This document shows, piece by piece, positions 2,833-37,634 of a stretch of 37,921 bases of DNA. The position numbers and the translations under genes were made by a program. The DNA comes from a virus (Duplodnaviria; Heunggongvirae; Uroviricota; Caudoviricetes). The stretch is from the IMG/VR virus record IMGVR_UViG_2734482770_000007; one strand, given 5' to 3'. Below the pieces are notes generated by a model that was not told the DNA's origin, searched no databases, and worked only from the letters and a program-made list of their open reading frames with translations. The number at the start of each line of letters is the position of its first letter. Position 1 is the first letter of the stretch.

Positions 2833-3429
2833 TTAATTCGAGACTATTGTACTTCTTATACAAGCAACCACTTCAATATCAGAAAATGCACATTCAAAGC
2901 TATTCTCTGCTGTTGTAATTTTAATCATTCCTTTAGGAAGCCTTGTGATTTTTCGAATGGAATAGGTTCCGTCGATATTGATTAACCAGTTTCCATCAAG
3001 TACTTCAGAAAATTTTTGATCACAAATGTATGTGACGAGTCCATCCTGAACAACAATTGGTGATGAAAGGTTTGCAGGAAGAAATGATGAATCGAAGACA
3101 TATGAACCGTCTTCAATCATTTTGCCTGCGGCAAGGCGAAACTTAACAAGCTCTTCTGTAGCTGCTGTCAGCGAGCTTTGCTTAAGGCCTTGTCCGGTAG
3201 TTAACCATTTGAGGGAGGTTCCTGTTTCAAGAGCACATTGGATTATCCAGTCAGCAGGAAATGTATCCCGCAAATACCTGTTCGCTAGTGTGCTTTTTGA
3301 TACTTCCAAGTGATCAGCTAAAGCCTGTCGTGTCGTAAAGCCATAGGCTTCGACTAATCGCTCAATCGCAGCCTTACCACCTTTATTGGGATTTATTTTG
3401 ATCTCACTTGGGTACTTTGATGTTGACAT
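2833..3429 (-). CDS. cI: CI-type immunity repressor (186 CI-like, two-domain)
   Basis: 198-aa ORF, same strand and directly upstream of int operon, divergent from apl/cII; size matches 186 CI (about 192 aa) not the small P2 C; N-terminal HTH-like region. Confidence 0.8.
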   Translation of the reverse strand: MSTSKYPSEIKINPNKGGKAAIERLVEAYGFTTRQALADHLEVSKSTLANRYLRDTFPADWIIQCALETGTSLKWLTTGQGLKQSSLTAATEELVKFRLAAGKMIEDGSYVFDSSFLPANLSSPIVVQDGLVTYICDQKFSEVLDGNWLINIDGTYSIRKITRLPKGMIKITTAENSFECAFSDIEVVACIRSTIVSN

Positions 3430-3451
3430 ATCTCTTTTGCGATCCTAGTAT
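3423..3451 (+). promoter_or_regulatory. Putative lytic promoter pR (TTGACA-17 nt-TAGTAT)
   Basis: Consensus -35 TTGACA at 3423-3428, 17-nt spacer, -10 TAGTAT at 3446-3451, pointing toward apl/cII; overlaps the cI start codon region. Confidence 0.5.
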
Positions 3452-3458
3452 CAGTTTT

Positions 3459-3474
3459 GTACCCAATTGGGTAC
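3459..3474. promoter_or_regulatory. Perfect 16-bp palindrome GTACCCAATTGGGTAC, candidate repressor operator at pR start site
   Basis: Exact inverted repeat read directly; located just downstream of the predicted -10, where a repressor would occlude initiation. Confidence 0.45.
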
Positions 3475-3524
3475 TTGTCACGATTACTACAGGCTCACCA
3501 CAAGCCAATAGGAGATGTTGCATC

Positions 3525-3746
3525 ATGACCCCTAACATTTCAATAACTCTGAATACGCCACACGTCACAATCGAGCGTTATAGCGAACTTACTGGTCTTT
3601 CAATCGACACAATCAACGATATGTTGGCGGATGGTCGCATTCCTCGGCATCGTCTTCGTAAAGACAAGAAAAGAGAAAAGGTAATGATCAACCTTGCTGC
3701 TCTTACCGTTGATGCACTTACTGATTGCAATGTTGTATTCAACTAG
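3525..3746 (+). CDS. apl: Apl/Cox-like excisionase and transcriptional regulator (small HTH protein)
   Basis: 73-aa ORF from ATG 3525 preceded by AGGAGA; sequence [26 protein letters not shown] is a winged-HTH excisionase-like motif; first gene of the rightward early operon, followed by cII as in 186. Confidence 0.6.
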
Positions 3747-3778
3747 TTCCATTTTGGGATACATCAGAGGTGTCGACC

Positions 3779-4288
3779 ATGTTTGATTACCAAGTTTCCA
3801 AACATCCACATTTTGATGAAGCCTGTCGTGCATTCGCACTGCGCCACAATCTGGTGCAACTGGCAGAACGTGCGGGCATGAATGTGCAGATTCTGCGGAA
3901 CAAGCTGAACCCAGCTCAACCTCATTTATTAACCGCACCAGAAATCTGGCTGCTTACCGATCTGACTGAAGATTCAACGTTGGTAGATGGTTTTCTGGCA
4001 CAGATTCATTGTCTGCCATGTGTACCGATTAATGAGGTAGCAAAAGAGAAACTGCCGCATTACGTCATGAGCGCAACTGCAGAGATCGGGCGTGTTGCAG
4101 CAGGTGCGGTATCTGGTGATGTAAAAACTAGTGCCGGTCGTCGTGATGCTATCAGCAGCATTAACTCTGTAACACGACTGATGGCTCTGGCTGCTGTTTC
4201 ATTGCAAGCCCGTTTACAGGCTAATCCTGCGATGGCGAGTGCAGTTGATACCATGACTGGCCTTGGTGCTTCATTCGGTTTGCTGTGA
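3779..4288 (+). CDS. cII: CII lysogeny-establishment activator (phage 186 CII-like)
   Basis: 169-aa product from ATG 3779 ([24 protein letters not shown]...GASFGLL); near-identical in length and strongly resembles 186 CII as I recall it. Confidence 0.8.
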
Positions 4289-4295
4289 GGTGTTT

Positions 4296-4592
4296 ATGCT
4301 GACGAAAGAACCATCATTTGCATCGCTGCTGGTAAAACAAAGCCCGGCAATGCACTACGGTCACGGCTGGATCACGGGTGAGGATGGAAAACGCTGGCAT
4401 CCATGTCATTCACAAGATGAATTGCTGTCTGAATTGACCACGAGGAAACGGAGAAAGTCCAAATGTATGCGGCAGAAAGTGAAGTGGTTTATCAGTTTCG
4501 TTACAGAGGGGAGAGTTATTCAGTACCTGAAGGTGATTTGCTCTGTTGCTATCCGTCATTGTCGGGCGATGGCAGTTACTTTTTCACGTTAA
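4296..4592 (+). CDS. Hypothetical early protein (possibly real only to about 4465; 3' part overlaps next ORF)
   Basis: ATG 4296 with upstream TGAGG; ORF overlaps 4463..4687 by about 130 nt in a different frame; C-terminal part looks like read-through. Confidence 0.3.
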   Translation: MLTKEPSFASLLVKQSPAMHYGHGWITGEDGKRWHPCHSQDELLSELTTRKRRKSKCMRQKVKWFISFVTEGRVIQYLKVICSVAIRHCRAMAVTFSR

Positions 4593-4687
4593 AGGATGGG
4601 ACGTTTTTACGGGGAGAGCAGGTTAAAGAGACGATACGAAAAAATGTATCTCCTCTTGAGCGTTACCGTAAGAACAAAGAACGATAG
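4463..4687 (+). CDS. Hypothetical early protein
   Basis: 74-aa ORF with GGAGAAAG Shine-Dalgarno about 8 nt upstream of ATG 4463. Confidence 0.4.
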   Translation: MYAAESEVVYQFRYRGESYSVPEGDLLCCYPSLSGDGSYFFTLKDGTFLRGEQVKETIRKNVSPLERYRKNKER

Positions 4688-4709
4688 CTGCGTTTGGGGG
4701 ATATGAAGT

Positions 4710-5051
4710 ATGGCAATTAATGGCGCTGCAGCAACTGTTCCATTAAGCCCCGGTGAACGCCTGAATGGACTTAATCACATTGCGGAGTTAAGGGCGAAAG
4801 TTTTTGGCCTGAATATTGAGTCAGAGCTTGAGCGGTTTATTAAAGATATGCGTGATCCACGGGATATCAATAATGAACAAAATAAACGGGCACTGGCTGC
4901 CATATTCTTTATGGCAAAAATTCCAGCTGAACGTCATAGCATCAGCATTAATGAGCTGACCACTGACGAAAAGCGGGAGCTGATTAAAGCAATGAATCAT
5001 TTTCGTGCAGTGGTGAGCTTATTTCCCAGACGGCTAACCATGCCGAATTAA
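4710..5051 (+). CDS. Hypothetical early protein
   Basis: 113-aa ORF, GGGGGA upstream of ATG; same strand and spacing as early operon. Confidence 0.5.
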   Translation: MAINGAAATVPLSPGERLNGLNHIAELRAKVFGLNIESELERFIKDMRDPRDINNEQNKRALAAIFFMAKIPAERHSISINELTTDEKRELIKAMNHFRAVVSLFPRRLTMPN

Positions 5052-5118
5052 CCAACTAATGAAATTAATGGCGTAAACCCGCCGGGCATCCCTTTATCTA
5101 AATTCAGGAGAATTGATT

Positions 5119-5352
5119 ATGCGTAATATTGAAACCCTCACGACTAAAACCGGACCGGATGACGCAGGGCTTAATATTTTACTGACAGAGGCTCGTCTGG
5201 AAGAACGCCGGGCAAGGGCTGAAGCAATGGCTGCTCGCCTTGATAGCCTGGCGTGTCATATCTCATCCCGCCAGCTAAACCACGTGGAAGCGGCAGAACT
5301 GCTGCGCGTGACTGCTGAAGCAATCCAGAACGAAGCGCAGGAGATCCACTAA
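5119..5352 (+). CDS. Hypothetical early protein
   Basis: ATG 5119 preceded by AGGAG (5106-5110); stop overlaps next start (TAATG). Confidence 0.5.
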   Translation: MRNIETLTTKTGPDDAGLNILLTEARLEERRARAEAMAARLDSLACHISSRQLNHVEAAELLRVTAEAIQNEAQEIH

Positions 5353-5579
5353 TGGCTGATGCAATGGATCTCGTACAGCAGCGCGTTGAAGAAGAACGCC
5401 AGCGCCATATCCGTGCAGCCCGTGCCAAATCACCGGGCGTGTCACGCGTACTTTGCATTGAATGTGAAGCGCCAATTCCGCCAGCACGACGCCGCGCCAT
5501 TCCGGGAGTGCAGCTTTGCATTACCTGTCAGGAAATCGCAGAACTGAAAGGCAAACATTACAACGGAGGTGCTGTATGA
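5352..5579 (+). CDS. TraR/DksA-family C4 zinc-finger protein
   Basis: 75-aa ORF with CIECEAPIP...CITCQ (Cys-x2-Cys ... Cys-x2-Cys); start overlaps upstream stop and stop overlaps dam start (ATGA). Confidence 0.6.
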   Translation: MADAMDLVQQRVEEERQRHIRAARAKSPGVSRVLCIECEAPIPPARRRAIPGVQLCITCQEIAELKGKHYNGGAV

Positions 5580-6433
5580 GCACCATCCTGAAATGGGCGG
5601 GAAATAAAACCGCCATTATGCCAGAACTGAAAAAATACCTTCCTGCTGGCCCGCGACTGGTTGAACCTTTCGCGGGTTCCTGTGCTGTGATGATGGAAAC
5701 GGATTATCCCAGCTATCTGGTTGCGGATATTAATCCTGATTTAATCAACCTCTATAAAAAGGTTGCCGCTGATTGTGAATCGTTTATATCTCGCGCCAGA
5801 GTTTTATTTGAGATCGCAAACAGGGAGGTGGCTTATTACAACATAAGGCAGGAGTTTAACTGCTCAACTGAAATTACTGATTTCATGAAAGCGGTATATT
5901 TCCTGTATCTCAATCGTCACGGTTACCGTGGTTTATGTCGCTATAACAAGAGCGGGCATTTCAACATTCCCTACGGTAATTATAAAAATCCGTATTTCCC
6001 TGAAAAAGAACTTCGCACATTTGCAGAAAAAGCCCAGCGAGCAACGTTTATCTGCGCCAGCTTTGATGAAACGCTGGCGATGTTGAAGGCGGGAGATGTG
6101 GTGTATTGCGATCCGCCATATGACGGTACGTTTTCCGGCTATCACACTGATGGTTTCACTGAAGATGACCAGTATCACCTGGCATCCGTTCTTGAACATC
6201 GGTCATCAGAAGGACATCCGGTCATTGTTTCTAACAGTGACACATCCCTGATCCGTTCGCTGTATCGCAATTTTACTCACCACTATATCAAGGTAAAACG
6301 CAGCATCGGTGTGGCAGCTGGCGAGGGTAAATCAGCAACAGAAATCATTGCTGTTTCCGGGCCGCGCTGCTGGATGGGATTTGATTATTCGCGTGGCGTG
6401 GATAGTTCTGCCGTGTACGGAGTACGTGCATGA
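5576..6433 (+). CDS. dam: DNA adenine methyltransferase (Dam family, orphan)
   Basis: N-terminus ILKWAGNK...LVEPFAGS (AdoMet motif I) and catalytic DPPY (CDPPYDG) read directly; GGAGGT upstream of ATG 5576; no restriction endonuclease gene adjacent. Confidence 0.85.
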
Positions 6434-8844
6434 GTCATGCCGATATGAACAACTGCTGCGGCTTTAACGAGGCTGCCGCAGCATTCTCATGGAACAGCCC
6501 GAAAAAGGCCATTAACCCTTATCTGGACCCGGCGGAAGTTGCGCCGGTTTCTACGCTTTCAAACCTGATCACTCTGTACGCTGCCGATAACGAGCAGGAA
6601 CAGTTGCGCCGCGAGGCACTGAGTGATCAGGTCTGGGAGCGTTATTTCTTTAATGAATCACGTGATCCTGTCCAGCGCGAAATGGAGCAGGATAAGCTCA
6701 TTAGCCGGGCAAAGCTGGCGCATGAGCAGCAGCGTTTTAATTCAGACATGGTCATTCTGGCGGACGTCAACGCCCAGCCTTCCCATATCAGCAAGCCGCT
6801 GATGCAACGTATTGAATACTTCAGCAGCCTGGGCAGGCCAAAGGCTTATTCCCGCTATTTACGTGAGACGATTAAGCCATGTCTGGAACGACTGGAGCAT
6901 GTACGCGACAGTCAGCTATCTGCATCTTTTCGCTTTATGGCAAGCCATGAAGGGCTGGACGGCCTGCTGATCCTGCCTGAAATGAGTCAGGATCAGGTGA
7001 AACGCCTGTCCACCTTGGTAGCTGCGCATATGAGTATGTGCCTTGATGCAGCTTGTGGTGATTTGTATGCCACCGATGACGTTAAGCCAGAAGAAATCCG
7101 CAAGACATGGGAAAAGGTGGCAGCGGAAACCCTGCGTCTGGATGTCATCCCACCTGCGTTTGAGCAACTCCGTCGGAAAAGAAACCGCCGTAAACCCGTG
7201 CCGTATGAACTCATTCCGGGTTCGCTGGCGCGTATGTTGTGCGCCGACTGGTGGTATCGGAAATTATGGAAGATGCGTTGCGAATGGCGGGAAGAGCAGT
7301 TGCGCGCTGTTTGCCTGGTCAGCAAAAAAGCATCTCCTTATGTCAGCTATGAAGCCGTGATGCATAAACGTGAGCAGCGCCGTAAGTCGCTGGAGTTTTT
7401 CCGTTCTCATGAACTGGTGAACGAAGACGGCGACACGCTGGACATGGAGGATGTGGTAAACGCCAGCAGCAGCAACCCTGCGCATCGCCGCAATGAGATG
7501 ATGGCCTGTGTTAAAGGTCTGGAGCTTATCGCGGAAATGCGCGGTGACTGCGCCGTTTTCTACACTATCACCTGTCCGTCGCGTTTCCATTCCACGCTAA
7601 ATAACGGCAGACCAAACCCGACCTGGACAAACGCGACGGTAAGACAAAGCAGCGATTATCTGGTCGGCATGTTTGCTGCATTTCGTAAGGCGATGCACAA
7701 AGCCGGGTTGCGCTGGTATGGCGTGCGGGTGGCTGAGCCGCATCATGATGGCACAGTTCACTGGCACCTGTTGTGTTTCATGCGCAAAAAAGACCGCCGT
7801 GCCATCACTGCATTACTGCGTAAGTTTGCCATCCGTGAAGACCGCGAGGAGCTGGGCAATAACACTGGGCCGCGCTTTAAGTCTGAGTTGATTAACCCGC
7901 GCAAAGGAACGCCGACAAGCTACATCGCGAAATATATCAGTAAGAACATTGACGGTCGTGGTCTGGCTGGCGAGATCAGCAAGGAAACGGGTAAATCTCT
8001 GCGTGATAACGCTGAATACGTGAATGCCTGGGCGTCTCTGCATCGTGTTCAGCAATTCCGCTTCTTTGGTATTCCGGGGCGTCAGGCTTACCGTGAACTT
8101 CGCTTGCTGGCTGGTCAGGCGGCAAGGCAACAGGGTGACAAAAAAGCAGGTGCGCCGGTACTGGATAACCCGCGTCTTGATGCCATTCTGGCTGCTGCTG
8201 ATGCTGGTTGTTTTGCCACCTACATCATGAAGCAGGGCGGCGTACTGGTTCCCCGTAAATATCACCTCATCAGAACCGCTTATGAAATCAACGAAGAGCC
8301 GACCGCCTATGGCGATCACGGCATTCGTATTTATGGCATCTGGTCACCCATTGCAGAGGGCAAGATCTGCACTCATGCAGTGAAGTGGAAAATGGTTCGT
8401 AAAGCCGTTGACGTTCAGGAGGCGGCAGCCGACCAGGGCGCTTGCGCCCCTTGGACTCGTGGCAATAACTGTCCCCTTGCTGAAAATTTGTACCAACAAG
8501 GGAAAGACAAATCAGCTGATGGGGATACCAGAACGGATATCACCCGCATGGATGACAAGGAATTGCACGATTACCTGCACAGTATGAACAAAAAAGAGCG
8601 TCGGGAACTGGCTGCAAGGTTACGCCTGGTGAAACCGAAACGGCGTAGAGACTACAAACAGCGAATTACAGATCATCAGCGACAGCAGCTCGTCTATGAA
8701 CTGAAGTCCAGAGGATTTGATGGCAGCGAGAAAGAGGTCGATTTACTCCTTCGCGGCGGCAGCATTCCGTCAGGAGCAGGCCTGCGTATTTTCTATCGGA
8801 ACCAGCGTTTGCAGGAAGATGATAAGTGGCGGAACCTGTATTAA
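6430..8844 (+). CDS. A: Rolling-circle replication initiator (P2/186 gene A family)
   Basis: 804-aa ORF with metal-binding motif [11 protein letters not shown] (HUH-type) and Tyr-containing YIAKYISKN region; start overlaps dam stop (ATGA). Confidence 0.9.
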
Positions 8845-8938
8845 TTACGCGGGTTAACAATTCGTGCTCTTAATAATACCAGGTATATCAGGCTGATGAA
8901 CGTAAAAAAACGTTTTACATCAGTAAGATTATTATATA

Positions 8939-8954
8939 CTGTAAATATAAACAG
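8939..8954. promoter_or_regulatory. LexA (SOS) box CTGT-N8-ACAG
   Basis: TACTGTAAATATAAACAGTG read directly; close match to LexA consensus TACTGT(AT)4ACAGTA; 44 bp upstream of ATG 8998. Confidence 0.6.
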
Positions 8955-8997
8955 TGGTTATGCATACAGTATTGCTTGTGGTGTCATAGGAGGAAAG

Positions 8998-9186
8998 ATG
9001 CAGGACTATTTTTTGGAGTCTTTGAAGCTCCAGCGCATTGATTTTTTTCTTAAGCTTGTAGCGGCTAGTGAGTGTAGTGATGAAGAGAAGGGGCTGGCCC
9101 TGCAGTGGGTTTCTGAACTGACAGATGAACTCATGGCAAAAATCAGAACCCACGAATACAACCGCTCAATGGATGTCATCAGCTGA
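8998..9186 (+). CDS. Small SOS-controlled protein, possibly Tum antirepressor N-terminal module
   Basis: 62-aa ORF from ATG 8998 with AGGAGG Shine-Dalgarno; directly downstream of LexA box; position matches 186 tum. Confidence 0.45.
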   Translation: MQDYFLESLKLQRIDFFLKLVAASECSDEEKGLALQWVSELTDELMAKIRTHEYNRSMDVIS

Positions 9187-9196
9187 GGTGACTTTT

Positions 9197-9430
9197 ATGC
9201 GCATTGAAATAATGATCGATAAAGAGCAGAAGATTAGCCAGTCTACCCTGGACGCCCTTGAATCCGAGCTTTACCGCAATCTGCGCCCCCTGTATCCCAA
9301 AACGGTAATTCGCATTCGCAAAGGTAGCTCTAACGGTGTGGAACTGACCGGACTGCAACTGGACGAAGAAAGGAAGCAAGTGATGAAAATTATGCAGAAG
9401 GTGTGGGAAGACGACAGCTGGCTGCATTAA
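9197..9430 (+). CDS. DinI-like protein
   Basis: 77-aa product MRIEIMIDK...DALESEL...WEDDSWLH aligns by eye with E. coli DinI (MRIEVTIAK...DALAGEL...WESADDW); GAGGTG upstream of ATG 9197. Confidence 0.75.
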   Translation: MRIEIMIDKEQKISQSTLDALESELYRNLRPLYPKTVIRIRKGSSNGVELTGLQLDEERKQVMKIMQKVWEDDSWLH

Positions 9431-9460
9431 GAAACGTTGCCCCCAAGAGGATTCATTCTG

Positions 9461-9631
9461 ATGGGGGACTATTTTGGGCAACGAGTGAAACGAGGCGTTA
9501 GGTGGACGGCCATTTTGATAAGTGATCGTCCGCTTTTTGTTCTGAGTTCAAGCGATGGATTTAACACACTGGTTGAAGCAGAAGTATCTAAGTTCAATTT
9601 ATATTATTTGAAGGGCACTGGTCTGATGTAG
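9461..9631 (+). CDS. Hypothetical small protein in hotspot
   Basis: 56-aa ORF from ATG 9461 with AAGAGGA Shine-Dalgarno; track lists a longer version from 9437 (non-ATG start). Confidence 0.3.
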   Translation: MGDYFGQRVKRGVRWTAILISDRPLFVLSSSDGFNTLVEAEVSKFNLYYLKGTGLM

Positions 9632-9717
9632 TACGATTTTTGCCGGAGATGGCATGTTCTATATTGATCTCATCCATATAATGATTGGTATTATTAGCTT
9701 AGTTTAAAGAGGATTGA

Positions 9718-11295
9718 ATGGATATCAACTATGTTGTTTCAAAAATGGGGTTCGTAGATGATCTTATTAATGCAGGTTCATTTGATTCTGCCTATAAAAA
9801 TGTAAAGGATATTCTTAACGGTATCGATGAGATAAATACAATCAAAGAAAATAGAATAATTATATTATCTAATTTGGCCGGAAATCTTATTGATATCGGA
9901 AGTTTTAGTAATGTAAAAAATATAGCGGAGGAAGGCTTAAATATCTTTATAAACAATAAAAATGAATTTCTGACTATAATGAAAGAATCCTTATATTACT
10001 ATAACTTGGCAAATGGAATGAGCGCAGTTCTTGATTTTAATCCTAATGACAATGCAGATATTGATAGTTTCATTAAGCTGAATGATGTAAAAAATAATTA
10101 CTGGAAAGCGTTTAAACTTTCACAAGAAGATGGATGGGTGCCCCCTGATTTAATAGTTAATCTAGCTAATGTATTAAAAAAACAATATCGTATATCTGAA
10201 TCAATGGATTATTATGAACAAGCAATATCTATTGATAACTCAATTCCTCAGGCGTGGGTAAACAGATCTGAGGCATTAGAATTGCTTAATGAATTATCTA
10301 CAACATATACATATAAAATGATTAAAGAAGTTATTCGAGGTTATGAGTGTGCAATAAAGTCAGGGAAATGTTTTCCTTCATGGAAGGTTGCTCTTCAAAG
10401 AAAAATAAAGTACAACGAAAGTATATTGAGTGAATCATGTGTATATGGCATAGAGGATATAAGTACAGATGAAAGGCTCACGCAGGAGGAGTATGATACT
10501 TTATCAAACTACCAGAGGTTTTGTATAGATAATAATCTAATGTTGTCTGATCATTCGCTATATTGCAATTGTTATGCGTCATCTAAAGATAATATAACTA
10601 TTGCTACCACCGAGGAAGGTGTGTTTGGTGATTTTATAGTGCCAATGGAAATGGTGTTAAATAGACTTAAAGCTGAGTATTCCTTAGCACGAAAAATGTT
10701 TTTTGAATATAAGGTTGATAGTGAGTTTTTTGATGAGGATTCGGAGGTATGTTATTCTGAATTGTATAATGGAGAAATATTGTATGAAAATGTTGAGAAG
10801 TTAAGGGTTGCATTTAGAGCTTGCTTTGGTATCTTGGATAAAATAGCAGTTGCTCTGTGTCAATTATTTGATTTAAAACCAGATAGAGGACATATATACT
10901 TTCATAACTTCTGGCGGATTAGTGATGAAAAAAGAAAGCTTAAAATAAACAAAATAAATAATAAAGGATTGCTGGGTTTGTTTAGTATTGCTATGGATTT
11001 GAATGATAAAAATGGTGAGCTTGCTTTTTTTAAAGAATGGAGGAATGATTTAGAACATAAACTGTTAGTTATTCACGAGAAAGACATGTTAGTTGATTTA
11101 TATAATTCTTATGGGTTTTTTGATGAGGTGAGGTTTATTGAGAAAGAAAAGTTTGAGAAACAGCTCTTACAACTCATGAAAATTGTGAGATCAGCCGTTA
11201 TTCTTTTTGTGTTTACCATACGTATAGAGGGGAAAAAAAGTATTCCTAAAGATATGTTGACCATTAAAAATACCATCGAGAGAAAAGTATTGTAG
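9718..11295 (+). CDS. Cargo protein of unknown function; TPR-like N-terminal region, C-terminal HEPN-like Rx4H motif
   Basis: 525-aa ORF, strongly AT-rich by eye; AAGAGGA-like SD (AAAGAGGATTGAATG); helical repeat-like segment YYEQAISIDNSIPQAWVNRSEALELL; C-terminal EWRNDLEHK fits HEPN R-x4-H; followed by hairpin tcatcg-agc-cgatga plus T-run. Confidence 0.7.
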   Translation: MDINYVVSKMGFVDDLINAGSFDSAYKNVKDILNGIDEINTIKENRIIILSNLAGNLIDIGSFSNVKNIAEEGLNIFINNKNEFLTIMKESLYYYNLANGMSAVLDFNPNDNADIDSFIKLNDVKNNYWKAFKLSQEDGWVPPDLIVNLANVLKKQYRISESMDYYEQAISIDNSIPQAWVNRSEALELLNELSTTYTYKMIKEVIRGYECAIKSGKCFPSWKVALQRKIKYNESILSESCVYGIEDISTDERLTQEEYDTLSNYQRFCIDNNLMLSDHSLYCNCYASSKDNITIATTEEGVFGDFIVPMEMVLNRLKAEYSLARKMFFEYKVDSEFFDEDSEVCYSELYNGEILYENVEKLRVAFRACFGILDKIAVALCQLFDLKPDRGHIYFHNFWRISDEKRKLKINKINNKGLLGLFSIAMDLNDKNGELAFFKEWRNDLEHKLLVIHEKDMLVDLYNSYGFFDEVRFIEKEKFEKQLLQLMKIVRSAVILFVFTIRIEGKKSIPKDMLTIKNTIERKVL

Positions 11296-35142: not shown

Positions 35143-35189
35143 CAACAAAAAACCCATCAACCTTGAACCGAAATGGCGGGGTTGATGGG
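35143..35189 (-). terminator. Rho-independent terminator (minus strand) downstream of ybjL
   Basis: 10-bp stem cccatcaacc / ggttgatggg with 17-nt loop, followed on minus strand by TTTTTT. Confidence 0.4.
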
Positions 35190-35301
35190 CTCCACAAAAT
35201 GGGGACATCAAAGAAAAGCAGTGGCACTAATTAAGACTGATGCCCTGCGGAAAAGTTCTGCGGTTGTGCAAAAAAATTTCATTTTCAGGGCAACTTCAGT
35301 T

Positions 35302-36987
35302 TTATCCTAATCCTGGCCATACCATGACGATGATTGTCCCTGCCAGCGTCAGCAGGACGTTGGCGATTGCGTAGGTGCCCGCATAGCCCAGCGCAGGGAT
35401 GTTACTGCGAGCTGTATCACTGATGATCTCCATTGCCGGCGCGCAGGTGCGTGCGCCCATCATTGCGCCGAACAACAGTGCGCGGTTCATTCGCAATACA
35501 TAAGCACCGAACAAGAAACAGATAACCACGGGCACAAGACTGACAATTAATCCGGCAATCAACATCTGACCGCCAATCGCGCCCAGGCCGTTATTAATAC
35601 CGCTACCGGCGCTCAGACCAACGCCTGCCATAAACACCATCAAGCCGAACTCTTTCACCATGCTTAATGCACCTTGCGGAATGTAACCGAAGGTCGGGTG
35701 GTTAGCACGCATAAAGCCCAGCATAATTCCGGCGAATAACAACCCGGCAGCGTTCCCCATGCCGAAACTGAATGTGCTGAACTGGAAGGTGATCATCCCG
35801 ATCATCAGCCCAATAACAAAGAAGGCGCAGAATGCCAGCAGGTCAGTGACCTGGCTGTGAATCGAGATAAAGCCGATGCGATCGGCGATGGTTTTTACGC
35901 GGCGGGCATCGCCGCTGACTTGTAAAACGTCACCTTTGTTAAGCACGACGTTGTCATCTATCGGCATCTCAATCTGGCTACGAATGACGCGGTTAAGGAA
36001 GCAACCGTGATCGGTCAACTTCAGTTGTGCGAGACGTTTACCTACAGCGTTATGGTTTTTAACGACCACTTCTTCAGTGACGATACGCATGTCGAGAAGG
36101 TCACGATCGAAAACTTCTTTACCGTTACGGAAGCTGGGATCGAGTCGGGCATGGGCGTCGGGATAGCCTACCAACGCTATTTCATCGCCCATTTGTAGCA
36201 CGGCATCACCGTCTGGATTTGCCAGAATCCCGTTACGTCGAATACGTTCAATGTAGCAGCCGGTTTGTCGATAAATACCCAGTTCACGCAGATTTTTGCC
36301 GTCGGTCCAGGCCACCAGTTCCGGGCCGACGCGATAGGCGCGGATCACCGGTAAATAAACCTTACGGTTGGCATCAGTGTCCAGGCCACGTTCGCGGGCG
36401 ATTTGCTGGGCGCTGGTCTGTAAGTCCTGATGCTGCAATTTCGGCAAGTAACGCGCACCAACAATCAAACTCACCAGACCGATTAAATAGGTTAAGGCAT
36501 ACCCGAGGCTCAGATTATCCAGTGCCAGTGAGAGCTGCCTGCTTTCCATGCCGGAATGACGCAGTGTATCGCCAGCACCGACCAGAACCGGTGTCGACGT
36601 CATAGAGCCTGCTAACATACCGGCCGTCAGGCCAATATCCCAGCCAAACAGCTTACCTAACCCTAAGGCGATCACCAGCGCACTGCCAACCATCACCAGT
36701 GCTAACATTAGGTAATTTTTCCCATCGCGAAAAAAAATGGAAAAAAAGTTCGGTCCGGCTTCGACCCCGACGCAGAAAATAAACAGCATAAAGCCAAGAT
36801 TAAGCGCATCGGTGTTAATGCTGAAATGTTGTTGGCCTAATAACAGCGATACGACTAAAACGCCAATGGAATTACCCAGTTGGATCGAACCAAGTCGTAA
36901 CTTTCCGAGACATAGCCCAAGCGCGAGGACCACAAATAATAACAGAATGTAATTCCCATTTAACAATTCGGCGACGTTTATATTCAC
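35302..36987 (-). CDS. ybjL: Putative AAE-family transporter YbjL (two TrkA-C/RCK_C domains)
   Basis: 561-aa polytopic membrane protein; sequence matches my recollection of E. coli YbjL and the ybjL-ybjM-grxA gene order. Confidence 0.85.
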
Positions 36988-37256
36988 GGAGGCTAACTTC
37001 TTGTTTACTAGTAAGCTGTTGAAAGAAATGGTAATTTACGATAATGTTTTTTACCAGAATTCAGGGCGCAGATTCATTCAGCGCACCTAAACGATAGTAA
37101 AGTAACAATATATTTTACTAGTGTAATCACATTAGGTATCAACGGCTATATGAATTGCGTTGGCCTATATTAGCATGGAATGCGAAGCGGCTTTATCTTA
37201 CTGAACGCCACACTGGCGAAAAATGTGTTCGATAGACGCAGTGTCAGGAGGAACGA

Positions 37257-37634
37257 GTGAAACATAAACAACGTTGGGCGGGGGCAATCTGCTGTTTTGT
37301 CCTCTTCATTGTGGTGTGCCTTTTTCTGGCGACGCACATGAAAGGCGCTTTTCGGGCTGCCGGGCATCCTGAAATCGGCTTGCTATTTTTCATTCTTCCT
37401 GGAGCAGTCGCCAGCTTCTTTTCACAGCGTAGAGAAGTCCTGAAACCTCTGTTTGGCGCAATGCTGGCGGCACCCTGTTCGATGCTCATTATGCGGCTGT
37501 TTTTTTCACCGACGCGCTCATTCTGGCAAGAGCTGGCATGGTTACTAAGCGCGGTGTTCTGGTGTGCGCTGGGGGCACTGTGTTTCTTATTTATCAGTAG
37601 TTTGTTTAAACCACAGCACAGAAAAAATCAGTAA
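37257..37634 (+). CDS. ybjM: Inner membrane protein YbjM
   Basis: 125-aa hydrophobic protein between ybjL and grxA, as in E. coli K-12. Confidence 0.75.
   Translation: MKHKQRWAGAICCFVLFIVVCLFLATHMKGAFRAAGHPEIGLLFFILPGAVASFFSQRREVLKPLFGAMLAAPCSMLIMRLFFSPTRSFWQELAWLLSAVFWCALGALCFLFISSLFKPQHRKNQ

Follow-up and report, generated by a model that had tools for sequence, protein, structure and literature searches.

The window considered here is the whole stretch of 37,921 nucleotides of the IMG/VR virus record IMGVR_UViG_2734482770_000007 (Caudoviricetes), which holds a P2/186-type prophage adjoining the host genes rybB and ybjL. The subject of this study is a gene of the early operon of the prophage, encoding an orphan Dam-family N6-adenine DNA methyltransferase and situated directly in front of the replication gene A (Table 1). 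An intact frame of 285 codons runs from the ATG at 5576 to the TGA at 6431–6433, and the tetranucleotide ATGA occurs at both ends of the gene (5576–5579 and 6430–6433). A program-made list of open reading frames (ORFs) begins this frame at a TTG at 5516; the ATG at 5576 was used here, as in RefSeq and in phage records, where identical Dam genes begin at ATG. The stop codon TGA of the preceding gene, coding for a TraR/DksA-type zinc-finger protein (66 bits with TIGR02419, cutoff 59.7), is contained in the first ATGA, and the Dam frame is chained to the genes on either side by overlaps of 1–4 nucleotides. Since the DUF2732 gene also overlaps the zinc-finger gene, the stop of the former and the start of the latter sharing TAATG, four genes (DUF2732, zinc finger, Dam and A) form one tightly chained block. 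An earlier sequence-only reading of this DNA had described a Dam-family methylase with a DPPY motif, standing between a TraR-like zinc-finger gene and A in the early replication operon, with ATGA overlaps at both ends. All of this was borne out by direct reading of the two junctions, by domain searches with the protein and its neighbours (PF01258 at 3e-11 upstream, PF05840 at 1e-127 downstream), by alignment to the solved Escherichia coli Dam and by annotated relatives.

The protein covers the entire D12-class profile PF02086 (profile positions 1–253 of 253; 2e-75; 254 bits, cutoff 22) and scores 318 bits with the 'dam' subfamily model TIGR00571 of NCBI (cutoff 114.85). The best PADLOC model for it is that of an 'orphan methyltransferase' (oMTase, 2e-110). 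Structures of E. coli Dam (PDB 2G1P, 2ORE and 4GOL) are matched with E = 3e-73; the identity to this enzyme is 48% over an alignment of about 260 residues, and the phage protein has a 22-residue C-terminal tail relative to it. The cutoff of NF008152, the model of the chromosomal Dam equivalog of Enterobacteria, was not reached (287 vs 441 bits), and the product is therefore a Dam-family enzyme, not that of the host gene. The catalytic motif IV, DPPY, occupies residues 179–182, corresponding to 181–184 of E. coli Dam, and is invariant in 62 alleles and in five distant homologues. It is known that the residues by which E. coli Dam reads GATC are R124, Y119, L122, P134, N120, K9 and Y138 (PMC4417163). 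Six of these seven are kept in the phage protein as R122, Y117, L120, P132, K6 and Y136, respectively. Judging from these residues, it is likely that the Dam of the window keeps the GATC specificity, and we infer that it would methylate the adenine of this site.

Conservation of the gene was followed in IMG/VR, where a scan with the A protein (gpA) gave only near-identical relatives (97–100%), a set that informs on conservation and selection, not on the diversity of the genes in front of A. In all 77 complete loci with near-identical gpA, Dam is intact, has 285 codons and overlaps A by four nucleotides. The ratio of nonsynonymous to synonymous polymorphism (pN/pS) is about 0.2 across 62 distinct Dam alleles, and all the catalytic and DNA-contact residues examined are invariant in them. 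The Dam gene is probably functional: it is under purifying selection, its catalytic and recognition residues are kept, and its position and overlaps are conserved.

The left part of the prophage has the gene order int, a PD-Lambda-1-type gene and cI, followed by the rightward operon of apl/cox-like, cII, fil, DUF5347, DUF2732, zinc-finger, Dam and A genes; the neighbouring genes and the annotated relatives thus agree with the placement of Dam in the early, replication operon. From 3300 to 9700, a consensus scan of the + strand found a single site resembling a promoter, the pR-like one beside cI. Because Dam lies downstream of this CI-controlled promoter and there is no internal promoter-like site, its production is probably confined to lytic growth. 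In the lysogen, the CI-type repressor would shut off Dam along with the rest of the early operon, and, as the layout suggests, Dam is most likely silent there and made together with the replication proteins after induction. The same layout bears on lysogenic conversion, in which prophage Dam would be made in the lysogen and would alter host gene expression or methylation. Prophage methylases do alter host phenotypes elsewhere, for example, PamA in Staphylococcus aureus according to published work, and Dam methylation affects the excision of Salmonella prophages including the P2-like SopEPhi (PMC7380047). However, the gene of the window is inside an early lytic operon and no + strand promoter-like site of its own was seen for it; an enzyme of the same specificity adds little in a host whose GATC is already methylated; and the true conversion and defence genes of the prophage are in separate low-GC cargo spots. 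Conversion is, in our opinion, quite improbable.

A clear contrast in GATC content was found between P2-type genomes with and without Dam. The Dam-less phages P2, Wphi, L-413C, 186 and PsP3 have 14–30 GATC sites each, with an observed-to-expected ratio (O/E) of 0.13–0.23, and in each of these five genomes GATC is the most depleted of the sixteen 4-nucleotide palindromes. The prophage of the window contains 106 sites in 34.8 kb (O/E 0.69), and its Dam-carrying relatives Fels-2, ESSI-2 and vB_YenM_42.18 show O/E values of 0.76, 0.56 and 0.64, respectively. Taken together, these four Dam-carrying genomes have 67–117 sites and a mild depletion (O/E 0.56–0.76). The difference is also seen in the homologous late genes, where 65 sites in the window stand against 8–14 in the Dam-less phages. 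Avoidance of GATC by enterobacterial phages has been described earlier, along with the poor methylation of phage DNA by host Dam, and MutH was proposed as the selective force (PMC5014478).

On the basis of these data, it may be concluded, with a probability of about three in four, that the product of the gene is a functional prophage Dam that stands alone, is specific for GATC, is made in lytic growth and completes the methylation of the progeny DNA of its own phage. After induction or infection, the early transcript from the CI-repressed pR-like promoter would give Dam together with the nickase gpA. Rolling-circle replication would then make phage DNA faster than the scarce host Dam could methylate it, host Dam being limiting for high-copy DNA according to published work, and the phage enzyme would complete methylation at approximately 100 GATC sites of the phage genome. 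Fully methylated progeny would escape cutting by MutH or other processing of unmethylated and hemimethylated GATC. By completing the methylation of fast-replicating DNA, phage Dam would remove the penalty on GATC sites. It has been reported that solitary methylases of mobile elements are produced when these leave the cell, and that unmethylated GATC is the only form of the site cleaved by DpnII-type enzymes (PMC12707154); methylated progeny may also be guarded in the next host from enzymes of the latter kind. Two roles had been proposed in the sequence-only reading: protection of the phage itself, which agrees with the data and with the GATC contrast among them, and modulation of host genes, which finds no support in them, given the missing promoter-like site and the existing methylation of GATC by the host. 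The enzyme would account for the normal GATC numbers that this prophage lineage can carry, and it is a likely cause of extra GATC methylation after prophage induction.

Several points weigh against completion of progeny methylation by a GATC-specific enzyme. In the phage protein, the base-contacting N120 of E. coli Dam is replaced by R118 and R137 by N135. The motif I, which binds S-adenosylmethionine, is FAGSC (F32-A-G34-S-C36) and not FxGxG, its last glycine being replaced; FAGSC is common to every phage homologue in the alignment. In view of these three changes, unchanged GATC specificity is likely rather than certain. To our knowledge, T4 Dam likewise lacks the last glycine of motif I. The GATC contrast comes from nine genomes of about six genera, with a Dam-less set of two genera and with kinship ignored, and cannot tell whether selection is due to MutH or to restriction. 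Since all known hosts already have Dam, the benefit of a second enzyme rests on host Dam being limiting. Finally, the RNA hairpin predicted over the start of A in the window is not predicted in P2, Fels-2 or ESSI-2.

The substitutions mentioned above also belong to a different explanation, according to which the specificity is altered or relaxed and non-GATC or additional sites are methylated, giving the phage a broader anti-restriction cover than that of host Dam. R118 stands for N120 in the Elveevirus/Felsduovirus-type Dams, R137 is replaced by N135, the score of the protein is under the NCBI cutoff for host Dam, and E. coli Dam itself reads the first base pair less strictly than the others (PMC4417163). 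At the same time, the counterparts of R124, L122, P134, Y119, K9 and Y138 are kept and do not vary in the 62 alleles, the homologues take their name from the retron-Ec67 Dam methylase, and it is GATC in particular that separates the Dam-carrying from the Dam-less relatives. A change of specificity is therefore considered unlikely.

Table 1. Features of the prophage and its host flank discussed in the text, with window positions.
Feature	Position	Strand	Evidence and remarks
PD-Lambda-1-type gene, 558 amino acids (aa), GC ~37%	1136–2812	−	PD-Lambda-1 anti-phage defence model 2e-120; DUF4041 and T5orf172/MUG113
CI-type immunity repressor gene	2833–3429	−	PF07022 8e-32, PF16452 4e-27; homologue annotated 'phage repressor protein CI'
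pR-like early promoter (TTGACA, 17-nucleotide spacer, TAGTAT)	3423–3451	+	Consensus scan and sequence; function from position beside cI, as 186 pR
DUF2732 gene	5119–5352	+	PF10809 4e-29; RefSeq homologue of 234 nucleotides
TraR/DksA-type C4 zinc-finger gene (P2 Orf82 homologue)	5352–5579	+	PF01258 3e-11
GGAGG Shine-Dalgarno sequence	5565–5569	+	6 nucleotides 5' of the Dam ATG; direct sequence reading
Orphan Dam-family N6-adenine DNA methyltransferase gene	5576–6433	+	285 aa; DPPY codons at 6110–6121
Predicted RNA hairpin (6412–6419 with 6425–6432)	6412–6432	+	Pairs the AUG of gpA; part of the GGAG Shine-Dalgarno sequence (6419–6422) in the loop
Replication initiator/nickase gene A (P2-type)	6430–8844	+	PF05840 1e-127; ATG overlaps the Dam stop
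GC-rich hairpin (CCGGCG, 7-nucleotide loop, CGCCGG), then T-rich TTTCTACGCTTTC	6529–6560	+	~100 nucleotides into A; fold and sequence
Stretch matching the P2 ori nick region	~8445–8472	within A	Weak blastn match, 82% over 28 nucleotides, E = 0.03
TPR ORF with C-terminal LA2681-like HEPN domain, 525 aa, GC 32%	9718–11295	+	HEPN 2e-38
Low-GC (34%) ORF of the late region, antisense, 393 aa	20900–22081	−	Position of the non-essential P2 Orf30, between S-like and V-like genes
RybB small RNA, host flank	35144–35222	−	105 bits
YbjL-type permease gene, host flank	35302–36987	−	

A GATC site (3441–3444) is located in the spacer of the pR-like promoter just upstream of its −10 element, and likewise in the phage Cartapus (record L001, ~2313) and in P2 (record L002, 1900–1903). 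This promoter site spans three different immunity types; in the Dam-less P2 it overlaps the operator O1, and there is none in 186. Methylation-sensitive control at this site is possible. It could also be supposed that methylation of particular GATC sites of the phage, such as that at 3441–3444, times the lytic programme or the choice between lysis and lysogeny, bulk protection of the DNA being secondary. The recurrence of the site at early promoters agrees with this explanation, as do the facts that Dam methylation favours the excision of SopEPhi (PMC7380047) and that P1 requires Dam methylation at pac for packaging (PMC12707154). On the other hand, the Dam-less P2 has the same promoter site and 186 has none, host Dam would already methylate a single prophage site, and the stretch of A matching the P2 ori nick region, itself a weak match, contains no GATC, the nearest being at 8364 and 8671. 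Moreover, the genome-wide GATC contrast is left unexplained by such regulation. We consider that it has a small chance of being the principal role of the gene.

Translation of A may depend on that of Dam. In the predicted fold, the start codon of gpA is paired with a probability of about 0.99 (5% of shuffles reach the same value), and the same start-codon hairpin is predicted in Cartapus and 186. According to the record of phage 186, A does not seem to be translated unless orf84, upstream of it, is translated to its end, and the terminator tM1, located early in A, is expected to be active when A is untranslated. By its position, the GC-rich hairpin at the beginning of A in the window may be the counterpart of tM1; a terminator scan did not flag it, the T-run being too short for the rule of that scan. 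Translational coupling of A to Dam is plausible by analogy with the only experimental precedent, that of 186, from the overlaps and from the predicted hairpin. Ribosomes ending at the Dam stop would probably unfold this hairpin and start again on gpA, a behaviour reported for the pair of orf84 and A in 186.

If translation through the upstream frame is what A requires, the Dam frame might be a passenger, serving as a translated leader for gpA, with the methylase activity dispensable or decaying. Such an explanation is suggested by the 186 record and by the presence of unrelated genes before A elsewhere, a PAPS-reductase-like gene in 186 and a DUF5405 gene in P2. It disagrees with the pN/pS value of about 0.2 and the invariant catalytic and DNA-contact residues, with the integrity of 77 copies out of 77, with the conservation of the gene at 48–53% identity and in the same position in other genera, and with the fact that the presence of Dam tracks GATC content. 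The passenger role is, thus, highly improbable.

Different genes precede A in related phages. Between the zinc-finger gene and A, Orf83 (DUF5405) is found in P2, and the genes of 186 in front of A code for exonuclease-like, DUF5405 and PAPS-reductase-like (orf84) proteins; neither phage has Dam there. This is in accordance with the claim of the sequence-only reading that P2 and 186 lack Dam at this position, and the comparison of early operons of related prophages that it advised revealed Dam at the same position in many of them. The orf84 of 186 resembles the Dam gene of the window in that it is directly 5' of A, overlaps it by four nucleotides and is followed by a terminator-like hairpin (tM1) early in A; it differs in belonging to an unrelated family (PF01507), and the genome of 186 has 14 GATC sites. 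In 11 of the 77 close relatives, an inserted gene of 99 residues (DUF3850/ASCH) separates the zinc-finger gene from Dam and is joined to each of them by an ATGA overlap (loci L026, L028, L041, L045, L046, L047, L055, L063, L079, L080 and L084; at ~2348–2650 in most of them). These overlaps and the same ...GGAV C-terminal junction suggest cassette-like exchange at gene junctions. As the genes before A are different in P2, 186, SEN8 and the relatives, the region in front of A is a modular slot.

A broader, tentative interpretation joins these observations, although we would rather doubt it than accept it as a whole. According to it, one phage family has two heritable strategies, either to purge GATC or to carry Dam in a swappable slot before gpA, and translation of the slot gene licenses gpA. 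GATC would have been purged in P2, 186 and their kin, and the carriers of Dam would keep it. The slot would be a cassette site for Dam, PAPS-reductase-like, exonuclease, DUF5405 and ASCH/DUF3850 genes, chained by ATGA-type overlaps. Translation of the slot gene would open the hairpin at the gpA start and prevent termination at the tM1-like hairpin, thereby licensing gpA synthesis. The clade-specific change of N120 to R might be an additional adaptation, to replication intermediates as substrates of the enzyme.

The conversion and defence genes of the prophage are in separate low-GC cargo spots. The PD-Lambda-1-type gene is inserted between int and cI, where relatives have other genes. The TPR-HEPN ORF is in a cargo spot after A and a DinI/Tum-like gene (9125–9430) and is a candidate defence or abortive-infection gene; no system-specific PADLOC model matched it, and a weak generic TPR match was obtained. 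The antisense ORF of the late region gave no convincing family match, with a weak, sub-threshold match to a segment of Cys-tRNA ligase.

These cargo genes raise the question of whether Dam could be the methylase part of a defence system, restriction-modification or other, with its nuclease elsewhere in the prophage. The PD-Lambda-1-type gene, with its nuclease-like T5orf172 domain, would be the first candidate for such a partner, and the TPR-HEPN gene is also present. Both are on other transcription units, the best PADLOC model for Dam is of the orphan class, and no type II endonuclease family was detected in the neighbouring ORFs. The absence of a restriction enzyme nearby, claimed earlier, is thus confirmed, the gene being flanked by the zinc-finger gene and that of gpA. 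Furthermore, the PD-Lambda-1-type and TPR-HEPN genes vary independently of Dam among relatives: among those with the same Dam, Cartapus has a RES-domain protein, AR_0085 has an ABC-three-component system, and those of Klebsiella have still other genes. On this ground, a link of Dam to the PD-Lambda-1 or HEPN genes was rejected, and a split defence system of this kind is hardly credible.

The arrangement is widespread. The 1.25-kb junction of the zinc-finger gene, Dam and A is 99.8% identical in the Escherichia phage vB_EcoM-813R9, whose Dam is 100% identical in amino acid sequence, and 96–97% identical in Cartapus and many Klebsiella phages, where the gene carries the annotation of a DNA adenine methylase. 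The same junction was found in 1242 of 5426 complete E. coli genomes, i.e., in about a quarter of them. The exact Dam protein occurs on at least 1000 contigs, and its cluster at 90% identity has 4038 members. One of these members is named 'retron EC67 DNA adenine methylase', and the record of Fels-2 cites the same name. The block of zinc-finger gene, Dam and A is annotated in vB_EcoM-813R9, Cartapus, Klebsiella 4LV2017, Salmonella RE-2010, Fels-2 and SopEPhi. Novelty of the arrangement, implied by the sequence-only reading, was consequently not upheld: the gene is already known and ordinary, being routinely annotated and of a kind described in 1990.

As to the Salmonella Peduoviridae, the identity of the Dam protein is 96% with that of RE-2010 and 72% with those of Fels-2 (STM2730), SopEPhi and SEN8. 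In all four, Dam is directly 5' of the gpA gene and overlaps it, as in the window, and shares with it the R118 substitution and the C-terminal tail; in Fels-2 and RE-2010, a zinc-finger gene is also found upstream of Dam. Fels-2 and SEN8 differ in an annotated overlap of 10 nucleotides and a GTG start for A, and in SEN8, an additional exonuclease gene follows the zinc-finger gene and precedes Dam. More distant Dams, 48–53% identical, are in the same position in Cronobacter ESSI-2 and Yersinia vB_YenM_42.18. In the latter (record L008, 2465–3304), an intact Dam ORF of 279 amino acids, 53% identical, lies just 5' of the gpA gene; two short hypothetical genes are annotated at this position, which is probably a mis-annotation.

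An earlier description of such a gene is due to Hsu, Inouye and Inouye (1990); as presented in a Klebsiella paper citing them, the retron-Ec67 element of 34 kb was found by them to contain an ORF for a Dam methylase; the title of their article claims Dam methylase function for this ORF of a related prophage. The same Klebsiella paper refers to Dodd and Egan (1996) for the identification of the element as a 186-related prophage, and it tabulates a Klebsiella prophage with the gene order of the window: CI, orfA, CII, DUF5347, DUF2732, TraR/DksA, Dam (858 bp), replication endonuclease (2415 bp) and DinI. As far as these accounts go, the retron-Ec67 prophage resembles that of the window in having a Dam methylase ORF in a 186-type E. 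coli prophage. It differs in having a retron beside cos, where the window carries other cargo, and no retron was matched by Rfam in the window. Phage-borne Dam is not mentioned in the Eganvirus paper, in the paper on a P2-like prophage of Serratia or in the 2025 Salmonella paper on Dam memory.

Comparison with other Dam enzymes shows both common and distinctive traits. The chromosomal Dam of E. coli belongs to the same fold family, and the phage gene differs from it by its location in a repressor-controlled lytic operon. The Dams of P1 (Dmt) and T4/T2 are, like that of the window, phage-encoded and have no partner endonuclease; those of P1, T4 and T2 act on GATC in lytic growth. In sequence, the Dam of the window is far from the P7/P1 type (~35% identity) and from T4 Dam (~25%), the role of which in vivo is still unclear (PMC12707154). 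P1 needs methylation for pac cleavage, whereas P2-type phages, which use cos for packaging, are not known to require it. A 'prophage Dam homolog' of the E. coli strain EC958 (ST131), M.EcoMIV, was considered as possibly the same gene and ruled out, as it appears to be a methylase of 254 amino acids in a Mu-like prophage; it was silent by reverse transcription PCR (PMC4659465). It is apparently the methylase annotated at 36788–37552 of the EC958 record L010, judged by expected position and not by sequence comparison.

The Dam-carrying and Dam-less P2-type phages represent a natural experiment on GATC avoidance, which extends a classical observation and opens no new question. The GATC contrast is a new supporting result, and otherwise the gene has little significance as a discovery. 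It is also known from published work that over-produced Dam triggers at least one retron defence system, and the gene may, therefore, shape which hosts the phage can exploit. Retron systems with GATC in their msDNA are known to be triggered by the Dams of E. coli, Salmonella and P1.

No tRNA gene was found in the window. The host flank is marked by the RybB small RNA and the YbjL-type permease gene; in a related genome, the opposite side of the prophage is adjoined by rcdA.

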